Positions 26,540 to 30,629 of a DNA stretch of 34,665 bases are shown one piece after another. The notes beneath the pieces are model-generated. The model did no database searches, was not told the DNA's origin, and saw nothing but the letters and a program-made list of their open reading frames with translations. The stretch's first letter is position 1; every line of letters begins with the position of its first letter. Made by a program: the position numbers and the translations under genes. Source of the stretch: a bacterium (GTDB lineage: Bacteria > UBP18 > UBA7526); the NCBI GenBank assembly GCA_030616365.1, contig JAUWXM010000003.1, positions 1-34,665 of the forward strand. The letters are read 5' to 3'.

Positions 26540-27153
26540 TATTGAGTATAGGGATAGTTTCTGGGCTGAACGGTGGACCTCAGGTGTACTACATCCTCCT
26601 CTCCGGTAGCCCCTCTTTTTAGTTTAGCTTCTATTTCAATCATCCAGATGCTGTTGTATGAGCCTGCTTCAGGAGTGAATGAATTGATAGTGTTATCAGC
26701 CCACTTAGAATAATAATAAAGAGAAAAACTATCCATATATTTGGCCATTTCTTTTCCTCCTACACCTTCCTCATTACGATATAGGATGTGTTGAGCAGAA
26801 TCATAATAATAAGAGACATCCTTCAGGGTAGTAGTGTCTAAGAGATAGGCGCTGAAATTTATACTGGTAGCATCTGCAGCTTCCATCCAAGTGGCTTCTC
26901 TGGCTTCCCTGGTTAGTCTATCCATGGCCACTCGGGCCTGGGCGATGATGTCTGTTCTTTCCTTCCCTCCTCGCCAGACATCTAAACCACCCTTGAGAAT
27001 GCCATATAAAGCCATAGCGATCATACCAAGAATGGCTAAGGCAACCAGAATTTCAATGAGGGTAAGCCCCGTTGGAGATCCTTGCCAGAGGCAAGGCATC
27101 CGTCCCCTTCGGGGTCGGATTATCTCCAACGGGGTAAATCCTCTCTTCTTCAT
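26539..27153 (-). CDS. PilW/GspJ-like minor (pseudo)pilin with a 24-aa insertion in the leader
   Basis: MKKRGFT-PLE...SPT-GLTLIEILVALAILG; QARVAMDRLTREAREA; LRSTVQPRN. Confidence 0.85.
   Translation of the reverse strand: MKKRGFTPLEIIRPRRGRMPCLWQGSPTGLTLIEILVALAILGMIAMALYGILKGGLDVWRGGKERTDIIAQARVAMDRLTREAREATWMEAADATSINFSAYLLDTTTLKDVSYYYDSAQHILYRNEEGVGGKEMAKYMDSFSLYYYSKWADNTINSFTPEAGSYNSIWMIEIEAKLKRGATGEEDVVHLRSTVQPRNYPYTQ
27063..27138. mobile_element. 68-bp palindromic MITE-like element inserted in frame, with 4-bp TTTA/CTTA duplication
   Basis: Perfect 13-bp TIRs CCCCGTTGGAGAT (27067-27079) and ATCTCCAACGGGG (27122-27134), with two internal hairpins; 68+4=72 nt. Confidence 0.8.
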
Positions 27154-27170
27154 TTATGGTACTCCTGTGA

Positions 27171-27668
27171 TTAGTAGACTGATAATGTTTTTAGGCCGTA
27201 TAGAGAGACGGTAGCGATATCAGAATGCTCAACATAGACAATAATCCTTTTACAAGGGGTATTGGCCCCTGTTCCCATAGGGGTCTGGAGATCATAGGCA
27301 CTGACAAAGGCCACAGAGACGCTGCGTGTGAAGTCGGCATAGGCAGTCCCTACGCTGCTGCCCATAACATCTAGAGGAGGTATTTTATTCTTCCAATCAG
27401 AGTAATCATCGACATCGTCATATTCAGATCTATAGTTTTCTTCATGCCCAAAAGTGGCACTTTGTGTTTGAGGATCCCAGAACTCCTTGCCCATTATCTC
27501 GTCCATCAGGTCCTGGGCTAAGTTTGTGGCCTGGGTTCTCACCTGGTTGGCGATAACCCCATCCATACCCACAGTGAACATGGTGATGAGCATGGCGATC
27601 CCCATTGATAGAATGACTAAAGCAATCAAAATCTCGATTAAAGTAAAACCTTTCCTCTTTTTTAACAT
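27171..27668 (-). CDS. PilV/GspI (MshD-like) minor pilin
   Basis: KRKG/FTLIEILIAL; ATNLAQDLMDEI; YDDVDDY. Confidence 0.87.
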   Translation of the reverse strand: MLKKRKGFTLIEILIALVILSMGIAMLITMFTVGMDGVIANQVRTQATNLAQDLMDEIMGKEFWDPQTQSATFGHEENYRSEYDDVDDYSDWKNKIPPLDVMGSSVGTAYADFTRSVSVAFVSAYDLQTPMGTGANTPCKRIIVYVEHSDIATVSLYGLKTLSVY

Positions 27669-27675
27669 ATCTTTC

Positions 27676-28167
27676 CTACCAAATACTCACTGCCCCAGTC
27701 TCTGCGGCTATTCCAATATACAATTGATTTGAGCCCTTTTGAATCAGGACATTTCTGCTGCTTGTTAAGTCACCTCCGCTATCTGAGGGTTTGCCCAGAG
27801 CATTAAAAGTCACATAATGTTCACCAAAGGTGGTGTCCTCTATGGTAACGCCCTTCAATTGCTCATCATCATCAAAGTCGATATTTAGATTCGTGCCCCG
27901 TTTGAGAGGATTCTCTACAACTGTTCCCGTTTCCTCATTGTAAACGCTATAACGGTTCTCTGATGGAATAAAGTCTACAGTATGATCCTCATGCTGGGCG
28001 ATGGCGCGGCTCTGGGCTAATCTTATGTGATTGGCAATCTGTTCGGCGGCCGCGTCCACCTTGAAGCTGTCCGCCTGGCGGAAGAGGCGAGGAGCAAAGA
28101 CCGCAGCTAAGATGCCGATCAATAAGATAACAATGACCAGTTCAATGAAAGTAAAGCCTCTTGACAT
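27676..28167 (-). CDS. FimT/FimU/GspH-like minor pilin
   Basis: MSRG/FTFIELVIVILLIGILAA; IRLAQSRAI; VTFNALGKP; ETGAV; RBS GGAGG. Confidence 0.88.
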   Translation of the reverse strand: MSRGFTFIELVIVILLIGILAAVFAPRLFRQADSFKVDAAAEQIANHIRLAQSRAIAQHEDHTVDFIPSENRYSVYNEETGTVVENPLKRGTNLNIDFDDDEQLKGVTIEDTTFGEHYVTFNALGKPSDSGGDLTSSRNVLIQKGSNQLYIGIAAETGAVSIW

Positions 28168-28193: not shown

Positions 28194-30629
28194 TTAGGGG
28201 TTAGCCATTCTGGTCAGGGCTTCTTTTGCCGGAAGAAAATTGGGTCGCATCTTTAAGAGATATTTATATTCTGCTTTTGCTTCTTTTATTCTGCCTCCCC
28301 TTTCATAAAGACTAGCCAGTTGGAAGTGGGCCAGGGTATAATCGAACTTCAGGAGGGCCCCCTCATAACCACAGGATATCTTAGGAAAGAGATTCCGTTG
28401 CTCAATCTCAATAATTTTCTCATACTCTGAGAGTGCTCTGTTATATAAGCCTTTCTTAGAATAGAGGAGGGCAAGGTTATAGTGGGGTTCTACATAGTTC
28501 GGCTCATAATAGACCGCTCTTTCAAACTTCTCAATGGCTTTATCATCCCAACCCATTTTAGCATAGATGACCCCTAAAGCGCAAGAAGAAAATGGGAAGG
28601 TGGGATCAATCCTTAGAGATTCTTTGAACTGAGTGATGGATTTATTCATCAGGAGCCTATTTCTTCCCTGAGAGGCAAGCCAGTAGATAACCCCTAAATC
28701 TCTTCTATAATGACTATTCTCAGGGTTCAAAAGGACCATCTCCTCATATTCCCCAGTGGCCTTCTCAAGCCAGAATTCTCTTTTTTCTTTAGCGATGAGA
28801 GCAAGGTGGCGATATAAGTCTCCCAGGTTCTTGTGATAGCGGTCGTTGGTGGGCTCTAACTTCTGAGCGATGAGATAGGAGGATATCGCTTGATCGAAGG
28901 TCTTCTTCTTCTGATAATCGATTCCTTTTTTATAATGCCTATGGGCTATCAAGGGAAGGGTTGCCTGGGCAACGAGGAACAGGGTGAGGCAGATGATGAA
29001 ACTGCCCCGGATGAGGGGGCTGTGGTAGAGATGAGAGAATAGAGAGGCTGCGGGATGTGGGATGTGGGATGTGGGATGGGTTAGGTCCGTTGACCCGTTG
29101 GCCCGTTGGCCCGTTAGCCGGTTGACCCGTTGACCCGTTGGCCTGTCTTTCGTCTTTGCTTGGAGTATGAGGAGGGCGGCGAAGTAGATGAAGAGTATGT
29201 CTGTGGCTGGGGGGCGAAGGACGAAGTCGACAAAACTGTGAAGGAGAAGGCCGCTAAGGCCGGATAGGAGGCCGATGGTCAGATAGGGCTGAAAGTTGGC
29301 CGGTTGGCCGGTTGGCCGGTTTGCCGGTTGGTCAATTTGCCCGGTCCCAACATCTGTTGGGGTATTCGCCGGTTCTTTTAACTGGGTAACTGGGTAACGG
29401 GGTAACTGGGTAACTTTTGTTAGGGTTCGGAGGCCGGTGCGGAAGATGAGGGTTATTATCCATAAGAAGATGACCAGGCTGGGGAGACCAGTCTCGGCTG
29501 CTATCTGAAGATATTCATTATGGGCAAAACGAGCAGAGAGGCCATAGCGGGCAATGGTTTCATTGGTTAAGGGTATAGGAATCTTATGCCCCTTAAATAT
29601 TATACCATAGGTTCCCATCCCGGTGCCAAGGAAGGGATAGTCTCTGATGATTCTTAGTGTCCTCCCCCAGATCTGAAGTCTGTCAATGATGAATTTATTG
29701 GCCGGGGTTCTCTGAAAGGTGAACCCTCGCTCCTCTTTGAGGGGCGGGGTAAAGAAGCGGGTTGAGATGGGTTCCCCCAGGGAGACGTCGCTCGGTTCCT
29801 GGACAGTGACTTGGGCAGTAGAGTAGGGTTTGAGCTCTGTCAAAAATTGGGTGGTCTTCTTCAATGGTTGGGGCTTCAGAATTATCTGGATAGTAACAAG
29901 GGAGGCAGTAATGACGAGAAGTATTCCCAATAGAGAGAAGAGGCGTCTTTTCCTTTCTAAAATTCTCTTTCTTGCCAGGAGGATGAAGATGACTACGGAA
30001 CCCACAAAGGCCAGGTATCCTCCCCGGGAATGGGTGGCGAGTAGAGAGATAAAGGCTAAGGATGCGGTGATGAAGGCGAGGCGGGAGAGCCACTTTGAGG
30101 AAGACCAGAGGGCAAGGGCAAAGGCTAAGGGGATGATGAGGAGGAGATAGCCGGCCAGGGAATTGGGATTGGGAGGAAAAGTGGAAGCAATTTCAGTCAA
30201 ATTTGGCCAGTGGGAGAAGTATTGATAGACTCCGTAACCGGCTACGATGCTTCCCACACCAAGAATAGCAGAAATGGCAACCGGGAAATGATACTTTTTC
30301 CTAAGATTATTGACCAAGAGAAAATAGAGAAGAATAAAGGCCGCTACTTTATATAATTCAGAGAGGCTCGCTCCCTTATTTACAGAAAAAATGGTGGAAA
30401 GTAAGGCAAGGAAGAGGAAGAGCACCAGGGGAAGGTTTAAAGGGGTCTTGATGAATTTTACACCCCTCTCCCAGTTCATCCTGAGAAACCAGAGACAGGT
30501 TAGAAATAGGATGAGGATATAGGTAGCGGTAAGGGTCGGGATTTGCTTTGTTGCCCGAATAAGAGGGGTATAGATGAGGATGGCTAAGAGGCCAAGCTCC
30601 GTTATCCTAGCAAAAGTCTTCCTCGCCAT
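28194..30629 (-). CDS. O-antigen ligase-like (Wzy_C) oligosaccharyltransferase with C-terminal TPRs
   Basis: NPNSLAGYL, THSRGG, RLQIW...YPFLGTGMGTY, AHNEYLQIAAETG, LHSFVDF, followed by TPR repeats. Confidence 0.88.
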   Translation of the reverse strand: MARKTFARITELGLLAILIYTPLIRATKQIPTLTATYILILFLTCLWFLRMNWERGVKFIKTPLNLPLVLFLFLALLSTIFSVNKGASLSELYKVAAFILLYFLLVNNLRKKYHFPVAISAILGVGSIVAGYGVYQYFSHWPNLTEIASTFPPNPNSLAGYLLLIIPLAFALALWSSSKWLSRLAFITASLAFISLLATHSRGGYLAFVGSVVIFILLARKRILERKRRLFSLLGILLVITASLVTIQIILKPQPLKKTTQFLTELKPYSTAQVTVQEPSDVSLGEPISTRFFTPPLKEERGFTFQRTPANKFIIDRLQIWGRTLRIIRDYPFLGTGMGTYGIIFKGHKIPIPLTNETIARYGLSARFAHNEYLQIAAETGLPSLVIFLWIITLIFRTGLRTLTKVTQLPRYPVTQLKEPANTPTDVGTGQIDQPANRPTGQPANFQPYLTIGLLSGLSGLLLHSFVDFVLRPPATDILFIYFAALLILQAKTKDRPTGQRVNRLTGQRANGSTDLTHPTSHIPHPAASLFSHLYHSPLIRGSFIICLTLFLVAQATLPLIAHRHYKKGIDYQKKKTFDQAISSYLIAQKLEPTNDRYHKNLGDLYRHLALIAKEKREFWLEKATGEYEEMVLLNPENSHYRRDLGVIYWLASQGRNRLLMNKSITQFKESLRIDPTFPFSSCALGVIYAKMGWDDKAIEKFERAVYYEPNYVEPHYNLALLYSKKGLYNRALSEYEKIIEIEQRNLFPKISCGYEGALLKFDYTLAHFQLASLYERGGRIKEAKAEYKYLLKMRPNFLPAKEALTRMANP
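29052..29415 (+). repeat. Four 7-8-mer microsatellite tracts inside the Wzy_C gene
   Basis: (GGGATGT)~4 at 29052-29078; (CCGTTGRC)~7 at 29087-29142; (GTTGGCCG)~5 at 29295-29334; (TAACTGGG)~4.6 at 29379-29415. Confidence 0.88.

Follow-up and report, generated by a model that had tools for sequence, protein, structure and literature searches.

A palindromic mini-element at the cleavage site of a minor pilin gene in an uncultured bacterium, probably removed together with the prepilin leader

How can a palindromic piece of foreign DNA be kept inside the coding sequence of a pilin gene, right at the site where the precursor protein is cut? The question is raised by a 34,665-nt stretch of DNA (contig JAUWXM010000003.1 of GenBank assembly GCA_030616365.1, positions 1 to 34,665 of the forward strand, here called the window) from a bacterium of the lineage UBP18, UBA7526, in which a minor pilin gene (GspJ/PilW-like; 26539..27153, minus strand; 204 aa; PF07963, TIGR02532 and weak gspJ matches) carries a 68-nt insert directly after a five-residue leader. 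The answer that we hold with good confidence is that the insert is a miniature inverted-repeat transposable element (MITE) of a widespread family, that it landed in a TTTA of the pilin gene, and that the peptide encoded by it is probably removed with the leader by prepilin peptidase. Three kinds of sequence are used throughout: the window's own genome (G000; 1.12 Mb in 116 contigs, 76% complete), five comparison genomes of the same family (G001-G005), and wider collections of genomes, metagenome contigs and proteins.

On the coding (minus) strand the gene begins ATG AAG AAG AGA GGA TTTA, continues with the 68-nt element (27134 down to 27067) and resumes with CTTA CC CTC ATT GAA. The element (27067..27134) is Y-shaped and non-autonomous and scores 76.8 bits (E = 2.9e-18) against R1, a covariance model built on alignment A1 of 18 Y-shaped copies from G000, G002 and G004. 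By inverted-repeat pairing, its ends are perfect over 13 bp: the start-codon-proximal end, CCCCGTTGGAGAT (27122..27134, minus strand), is translated (T)PLEI, and the distal end (27067..27079, minus strand), the inverted copy of that sequence, is translated (S)PTG, its final three bases, GGG (27067-27069), being the codon of Gly29 at position -1 of a rebuilt prepilin site. Two inner hairpins lie between the ends, namely hairpin 1 (27098..27120; 5 + 4 bp, an A.A mismatch and a 3-nt loop), which is seen in the fold and in alignment A1 and is common to the 68-nt subfamily, and hairpin 2 (27080..27096; 7-bp stem and 3-nt loop), whose stem differs among copies in a compensatory manner. The flanking copies of the target duplication, TTTA upstream (27135..27138; the Phe6 codon plus the first base of Thr7) and CTTA downstream (27063..27066; the Leu30 codon plus the first base of Thr31), match at three of four bases. 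Element and duplication together add 68 + 4 = 72 nt (24 codons) between G5 and L30, so the 204-aa open reading frame (ORF) stays open and reads MKKRG/FTPLE...SPTG/LTLIEIL without a break. Within the window the 13-mer of the ends has two exact matches and one with two mismatches (0.91 expected at ≤2 mismatches). The RNA of 27055-27145 folds into a three-way junction of -54.1 kcal/mol (z = -7.4), a stability equalled in 0 of 200 shuffles, and an Rfam search of 26900-27300 gave three chance-level matches only (E 1.6-4.2, far under the gathering scores). The perfect ends, inner hairpins and TTTA/CTTA flanks, the in-frame length of 24 codons and the Thr-Gly codons that recreate G/LTLIE had all been pointed out in an initial annotation made from the letters alone, and the sequence and its fold bear them out.

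The insert leaves the gene with two potential cleavage sites, and the evidence favours the second. The Gly5 codon of the original G/F site (27139..27141, minus strand) now lies 24 residues from the hydrophobic helix, and it is the second site that fits the prepilin motif, G/(F,L,I,M)xxxE followed by the helix. PF07963 matches residues 29-50 with 23.7 bits (cut-off 21.2), TIGR02532 matches the same residues with 26.8 bits (cut-off 16.3), and the weak gspJ match also begins at residue 29. Prepilin processing requires Gly at -1, and a gene for the A24 prepilin peptidase (PF01478) is present at G000:C41. We propose that a copy of the element inserted into the TTTA of the Gly-Phe-Thr codons, and that the end reading Thr-Gly rebuilt G/(L,F)T-L-I-E directly before the helix. 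Prepilin peptidase would then most likely cut at Gly29/Leu30, because this site abuts the helix, its Gly is invariant among homologues (below), and the first site, which is dispensable in orthologues, stands 24 residues out in the cytoplasm; the profile matches to residues 29-50, and a paralogue whose sole Gly at -1 is encoded by an element, likewise argue for removal at the second site. With the element-coded peptide taken off, the mature pilin would be unchanged, the insertion would be close to neutral, and for that reason the insert would persist.

The same ends are found exactly at other places in G000, and variants of one or two bases at many places there. In alignment A1, 96.7% of the 486 helix cells pair, and 12 of the 27 pairs (52 cells) are altered on both sides, a compensatory change that extends over three helices; these pairing and covariation values were matched by 0-1 of 500 shuffles, and control structures shifted by 1-3 columns were only 36-47% paired. 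R1 finds 13 strong copies in G000 and 43 places in the relatives (25 in G004, 8 in G005, 5 in G001, 4 in G002 and 1 in G003). A length of 2 mod 3 is shared by every one of the 13 G000 copies and by all but one of the 43 in the relatives, in eight classes (62, 65, 68, 71, 74, 80, 98 and 104 nt), the exception being 76 nt; since the duplication adds 4 bp, every such insertion adds whole codons, and the check for lengths divisible by three proposed in the initial annotation holds for 55 of 56 copies. Only one of the three frames of the element ends has a stop codon, and because the element is palindromic the ends can be read in either orientation, as TPLE...LTG or PVR...NGV. Six copies in G000 are in frame within genes, including the one in the window pilin; the five others, in a MurA/EPSP-family gene, in the linker of a Memo|AMMECR1 protein, in an RluD-like synthase gene, behind the signal region of an Amidase_3 protein and between two domains of a GH94 enzyme, are each flanked by Pfam domains, before and after the insert. 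Inspection of the relatives added in-frame copies in an ABC ATPase and a pyridine-nucleotide-disulfide oxidoreductase, and copies also lie in unrelated genes and in intergenic DNA. Two single copies may be recorded separately: one in G002:C21 lies opposite a YjeF_N-like frame, and a 34-nt mini-copy at G000:C71:2659-2692, consisting of two diverged ends round a 5-nt loop, is intergenic, just downstream of a tRNA-like gene, with the flank GGATTTA, the same as in the pilin gene.

We class the family as MITEs. Terminal inverted repeats are present in all family copies; many copies are bordered by 4-bp direct repeats of variable sequence, so that the target duplication has a fixed length; the copies are dispersed, 53-104 nt long and devoid of a transposase gene; longer coding elements sharing the ends exist elsewhere; and filled and empty sites occur among relatives. 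The 4-bp duplications set the family apart from REP/RAYT elements, and PF01797 was not found in G000 (76% complete).

A scan for the exact end pattern, with one genome per species, gave at least 120 stretches, of which 80 were fetched. Among the matches listed are Pirellulales, Phycisphaerae, many Patescibacteria, Omnitrophota, Nitrospirota, Gamma- and Deltaproteobacteria, Elusimicrobia, KSB1 and others, and with copies in many phyla as well as in G000 and its relatives the proposal of a selfish element is supported. The target duplication is a perfect 4 bp in 43 of the 80 sampled loci and alike at three of four bases in 14 more, and 55 of the 80 copies are 2 mod 3. Full flanks were available for 74 loci. 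In 12 of these the copy sits in a reading frame that stays open over 100 aa or more to both sides, and in 8 others over 40 aa or more; the lengths of all 20 are 2 mod 3, which is partly so by construction. The duplications follow the consensus TNNA, 76 of 84 pooled counts having T at position 1 or A at position 4, the commonest form is TTTA/TAAA (12 of 42 perfect duplications), and the flanking bases show G at -1 and C at +1 (35 of 84 each), with a flat logo further out. Four of the 80 sampled copies (L065, L085, L088 and L108) sit exactly at prepilin G-F-T codons, all with TTTA on the coding strand and one each from Omnitrophica, Phycisphaerae, Planctomycetia and unclassified genomes. The view of the initial annotation that TTTA serves as a safe harbour is in line with these counts, and a preference for (G)TNNA(C), with TTTA commonest, would make GGN-TTT-ACN a good target, tolerance doing the rest. 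A resemblance between the target and the element's own end (TTTA plus the end against the prepilin coding string, 13 of 17 by eye) was also considered and rejected, the logo being flat beyond -1 and +1.

The same preference could be read more strongly, as active targeting in which the nuclease discussed below favours G|TNNA|C and the conserved GGG-TTT-ACN codons of pilin genes are a preferred site, so that the recurrence at prepilin genes would chiefly reflect a bias of insertion. The G at -1 and C at +1 and the share of TTTA/TAAA speak for this, and so do the site counts of G000: the genome holds 77,026 TNNA and 14,990 TTTA/TAAA sites and only 341 GTTTAC/GTAAAC sites, and two of its pilins read GGG TTT ACC. 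The scattered site states among the pilin orthologues (15 changes against a minimum of 5, with four sister pairs differing; see below) would also fit a hot spot. The window gene, however, reads GGA TTTA and has no G at -1, the flat logo gives no hint that the LIE codons are recognised, and in other genes the copies stand at linkers and domain boundaries, which is the signature of selection on tolerance. Insertion bias and tolerance can both hold, and we regard targeting as a serious possibility that falls somewhat short of an even chance.

A candidate for the enzyme that moves the elements came from a scan of metagenome contigs for the same ends with an interior of 225-255 nt. At least 121 stretches were found and 80 of them (L180-L259) were read; their lengths peak at 279 nt (31 loci), 281 nt (11) and 277 nt (7). 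In 45 of the 80 an ORF of 84-87 residues begins about 20 nt inside the left end and ends at the last base of the right end, and the remaining loci include variants with internal stops, outside the ORF pattern counted. In 30 of the 45 the first three bases of the flank form the stop codon (TGA-A in 16, TAA-A in 13 and TAA-G in one). The ORF encodes a GIY-YIG domain (PF01541, E = 2.5e-16 and 3.8e-18) that shows the catalytic features YVY, YTG, R and E and matches the UPF0213 structures 1zg2 (1.5e-8) and 1ywl (1e-3) in the PDB; at 86 aa and with no auxiliary domains, it is the only gene inside the ~279-nt elements. Among the individual loci, L182 and L201 are examples of a nuclease ORF without a stop of its own, and in L183, with the flank TTTACC, the ORF continues ...LTG-FT to the end of the contig.

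Small GIY-YIG genes are also found apart from these ends. In G000 an 85-aa homologue, 56% identical, stands beside tRNA genes on contig C67 without the ends, and may belong to the element family in a diverged or domesticated form. Its locus (G000:C67:2170-2560; ORF L036 1456-1713) is directly downstream of two tRNA-like genes, and nested hairpins (CCCCGT...ACGGGG) followed by TTTACC lie ahead of the gene, a layout repeated in G005 (L160). Small GIY-YIG homologues are present in four of the five genomes G041-G045. Another GIY-YIG element, of 273 nt, with other inverted ends, a TCAA duplication and a 75-aa protein, occurs in G001 and G002 (L167 = G001:C46:32999-33181 and L164 = G002:C30:56620-56802, one base differing and the flanks identical), and a GIY-YIG mini-element with yet other ends occurs in G045 (Omnitrophota).

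We propose that the minimal GIY-YIG nuclease mobilises both full-length and mini-elements, perhaps by cutting branched DNA extruded from the palindrome. Losses may arise by slippage between the 4-bp repeats across the hairpin, a route known for palindromic transposons. Alternatively, the elements would be moved by some other, unrelated transposase, such as a DDE enzyme that acts in trans, and the GIY-YIG gene would be cargo or a hitch-hiker. Inverted ends with a fixed 4-bp duplication are typical of DDE transposition, and the short-copy genomes that lack full-length copies would also be explained. GIY-YIG enzymes, moreover, are known as nucleases and not as strand-transferases (PMC1564403). 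On the other hand, the GIY-YIG ORF is the sole gene of the ~279-nt elements, its overlap with the right end and the stop supplied by the target in 30 of 45 cases amount to a tight integration of gene and element, and mini-elements with GIY-YIG genes, other ends and TCAA duplications exist in G001/G002 and in G045. Y1 transposase was not found in G000 (76% complete), DDE families lying outside that search. An unrelated transposase is conceivable, and we rather doubt it.

The state of the site differs among the orthologues. A search of 5.8 billion proteins returned 30 homologues besides the window protein, 45-73% identical, and after the truncated P0021 and P0023 were dropped 29 N-termini, including that of the window protein, were counted. 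Twelve (P0006, P0012, P0015, P0017, P0019, P0022, P0024-P0028 and P0031) have an empty, short leader, for example MKKKG/LTLIEIL in P0012 and MKRKG/IT in P0031, and at the downstream flank these empty sites read G/LT, G/IT or G/FT; the first 28 mature residues of P0012 are identical to those of the window pilin. The Y element is present in five (the window protein, P0001, with P0002, P0003, P0004 and P0009), a 56-residue insert with the same end-coded TPLE...SPTG in two (P0010 and P0013), and remnants in two (P0014, which is the G003 protein and reads MKRRGFTPSPTG/IT, and P0008). Six (P0005, which is the G005 protein, P0007, P0011, P0016, P0018 and P0030) carry a 35-nt perfect palindrome with the same TTTA and CTTA flanks, and two (P0020 and P0029) have other repeat-coded leaders. 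All insert lengths at this site are multiples of three. The Gly of the second site, directly before (L/I/F/V)T-L-I-E, is kept in 29 of 29, and the Gly of the first site has become Arg in the insert-bearing P0003, P0004, P0008 and P0009, which lends no support to the suggestion in the initial annotation that the first site, G/FTPLE, matters. That annotation had made its selfish-element reading depend on further copies of the ends and on orthologues with other leaders, and both were found: the ends are multi-copy, and 12 of the 29 sites are empty. As for the third kind of insert, the leaders of P0020 and P0029 end ...TFSLSH.L.CKG/LT, and P0020 begins with the end-coded GFNPLEI.

The site is also seen in two states among sequencing contigs. 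In one 143-nt contig of run X2 (depth 2.46; 10 differences in 77 nt), a spacer of 24 nt connects 27063 with 27160 and the site is empty, reading MKRKG/ITLIEI; other contigs of X2 and X4 are filled. When the six site states are placed on a tree built from the mature parts (29 rows), 15 changes are needed, with a minimum of 5 and a shuffled mean of 15.5, and the well-supported sister pairs P0009/P0015, P0004/P0022, P0028/P0030 and P0025/P0029 differ in state. The pilin site is turning over, by repeated insertion, precise loss or recombination.

These orthologues also bear on two further explanations. The insert might have been co-opted, its long basic leader, first G/F site or mRNA structure regulating translation, export or processing; the structure is very stable (-54 kcal/mol) and lies 19 nt after the AUG, close to the start codon, and filled sites persist in several lineages. 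We consider this improbable, since 12 of 29 homologues have no insert, the inserts, whether Y element, 35-nt palindrome or other repeats, are mutually unrelated and of varying length, four homologues have lost the first-site Gly, and the same element occurs in unrelated genes and intergenic DNA. That the insertion inactivated the pilin, with cleavage at the first site or nowhere and the gene decaying, is very improbable: the first site does retain G, F and Glu at +5 and G000 has minor pilin paralogues among its 15 prepilin-like genes, but the ORF is intact, the protein is 45-73% identical to its 30 homologues along its length, every insert variant keeps the frame and the second-site Gly, and the mature N-terminus equals that of the empty P0012 over 28 residues.

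Other pilins of G000 have been touched by the family. The leader of the pilin G000:C45:4778-5491 reads MSKNRLKRFLSPTG/FTLMEL; the final 12 residues of this leader correspond to the C-terminus of the element nuclease, the underlying DNA corresponds to the right 25 nt of family copies, and the sole Gly at -1 is encoded by the element end. Orthologues of this pilin, 45-51% identical, have short empty leaders (MIKEQKG/VT in G002, MLKNEKG/LT in G001 and MLRNEKG/FT in G003). A third pilin, C45:3667, has the left-end half in its leader region, so that 2-3 of the 15 prepilin-like genes of G000 are affected. The statement in the initial annotation that the other pilins lack the insert is accordingly true of the two other pilins in the window and fails for the genome as a whole (C45:4778-5491 and C45:3667). 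Long leaders derived from another dispersed repeat (...LTDSPIPR... / ...PDTPIPRYPDTP...) are found in the pilins C45:1459, C45:3667 and G002:C6 (L179).

Several points weigh against a MITE that is moved by the GIY-YIG nuclease and taken off with the leader. The cut position of the prepilin is predicted from sequence alone. None of the 21 located copies in G001-G005 lies at a prepilin site (6 of 27 loci were not placed by the script), and the pilin niche is therefore recurrent but minor; the recurrence at prepilin genes, for which the initial annotation had proposed a test of enrichment, is seen in 2-3 of 15 prepilin-like genes of G000 and in 4 of 80 cross-phylum copies but not in these relatives. 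With 14 of its 26 inner branches open and the bootstrap not settled, the orthologue tree has poor resolution, and gains, losses and recombination are not distinguishable on it. The 35-nt palindrome at the same site in six orthologues, with a 15-bp stem and read (I/T)QHHF...AG (L012, G005:C57, 353-391), is unexplained by the MITE model. At ≤2 mismatches it is single-copy in G005, at the pilin site, and was not found in G000, G003 or G004; being seen at the pilin site only, it is not classed as a repeat family, and its origin could lie in another element, in the footprint of an excision or in recombination of an allele. A 4-bp duplication is likewise left by DDE transposases, and no GIY-YIG enzyme is known to carry out transposition. 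Lastly, although a gene with matching ends exists in the ~279-nt metagenome elements, as the initial annotation had envisaged for the mobilising enzyme, G000 yielded no full-length element bounded by them, such ends are absent within 700 nt of the nine small GIY-YIG genes checked (G001, G002, G004 and G005), and no full-length elements were found in G041-G045, five genomes in which short copies do occur, in four of them at pilin sites. That a diverged GIY-YIG protein resident in the genome mobilises the elements in trans is therefore only a guess.

A broader reading can be offered tentatively, and we think its parts are unlikely to be all correct together. The family may represent autonomous mobile elements of a new class, smaller than any other known (~279 nt), whose sole gene would be a bare Slx1-like GIY-YIG nuclease reading out through the inverted end, with its stop codon borrowed from the TNNA target. 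The ends would be shaped for life inside genes, in either orientation and with all length classes 2 mod 3. At prepilin G-F-T codons the end would rebuild the peptidase site, so that mini-elements, and even whole nuclease genes, as the C45 leader suggests, could serve as translated but disposable pilin leaders. The structure-specific nuclease would act on the Y-shaped DNA, and the turnover of sites would result from repeated insertion and precise excision. If this were true, a host protease would in effect be "splicing" selfish DNA at the protein level.

Among known systems, inteins and homing-endonuclease introns are selfish DNA that persists in genes since the product is removed again. The Y insert resembles an intein in being a selfish insert that would be taken out after expression with the host protein intact, but it has no self-splicing chemistry, its 24 residues are far too small, and it is the host's prepilin peptidase that would remove it, at a site rebuilt by the end of the element itself. 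Type IVb pilins have leaders of about 15-30 residues, and the window pilin resembles them in having a basic leader of 29 residues with Gly as the last, Leu rather than Phe at +1, and Glu at +5; the length in the window, however, comes from a 24-codon insertion in a five-residue leader and is not a family trait, because empty orthologues have short leaders.

Closest in behaviour are the Rickettsia palindromic elements (RPEs), palindromic repeats of ~100-150 bp found in frame in unrelated Rickettsia genes (Ogata et al. 2000, as summarised in a 2024 review of MITEs, PMC10969869). Both are short palindromes that occur many times in frame in unrelated genes of a small genome and are translated and tolerated at permissive positions. 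The Y element differs in its length of 53-104 nt, its 13-bp inverted ends, its 4-bp TNNA duplication and its compensatory three-way-junction fold, and further in that the family spans many phyla and has a candidate autonomous partner, and that the peptide at prepilin sites is probably cut off. We therefore say that it behaves like an RPE and do not class it as one, the host being of an unrelated uncultured lineage, Rfam giving no match and the comparison being by description only. The ERIC and BOX elements and the MITEb/e of Anabaena, named in the same review as intragenic, are likewise non-autonomous, with inverted ends, target duplications and occasional in-frame copies. Those MITEs stem from classical insertion sequences with transposases of several hundred residues, whereas here the only gene is the 86-aa GIY-YIG gene. 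The text of the review contains none of the words pilin, leader or GIY-YIG.

The element protein resembles UPF0213 and Slx1-like proteins (1zg2, 1ywl) in being a bare GIY-YIG domain with a PF01541 match. According to Dunin-Horkawicz et al. (2006, PMC1564403), prokaryotic UPF0213-type proteins are the minimal stand-alone form of GIY-YIG, Slx1 is a structure-specific endonuclease, and the prokaryotic Slx1-like proteins are regarded as vertically inherited repair proteins. The cutting of branched DNA by eukaryotic Slx1, a structure-specific nuclease, would fit an element able to extrude a Y or a cruciform; unlike the genes found here, however, the prokaryotic Slx1-like proteins are not described in that paper as flanked by inverted repeats with target duplications. 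A full-text literature search, with most subscription journals outside it, found no published MITE in a prepilin leader and no bacterial GIY-YIG gene bounded by inverted repeats. Insertion of a MITE in frame is known behaviour, and what is special here is the probable removal by a host protease and the very small candidate autonomous form of the family.

The surroundings of the gene are those of a minor-pilin operon, as judged from its GspH-like, pilin and PilX_N-like neighbours: a GspH-like pilin gene (27676-28167) comes first, a pilin gene (27171-27668) second, the insert-bearing gene third, and a PilX_N-like gene (26102-26491) follows. The window also holds a gene for a Wzy_C/TPR protein (811 aa; 28194-30629, minus strand) with low complexity at about residues 430-520, between its membrane and TPR parts; the recurring motifs ...PANRPTGQPAN... 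and ...DRPTGQRVNRLTGQRANG... in this stretch may be repeat-coded insert DNA.

The finding shows a way for selfish DNA to persist in the genes of very compact genomes at almost no cost, the insert being placed where the host itself trims the protein. It ties tiny hairpin repeats that occur across the bacteria to a candidate mobilising enzyme, a GIY-YIG nuclease so far seen as a repair protein. For annotation it matters that elements may encode the long "type IVb-like" leaders, the odd pilin N-termini and the small insertions within essential enzymes that are met in uncultured bacteria. A codon position that changes rapidly between filled and empty states is a natural system in which insertion and precise excision can be studied.

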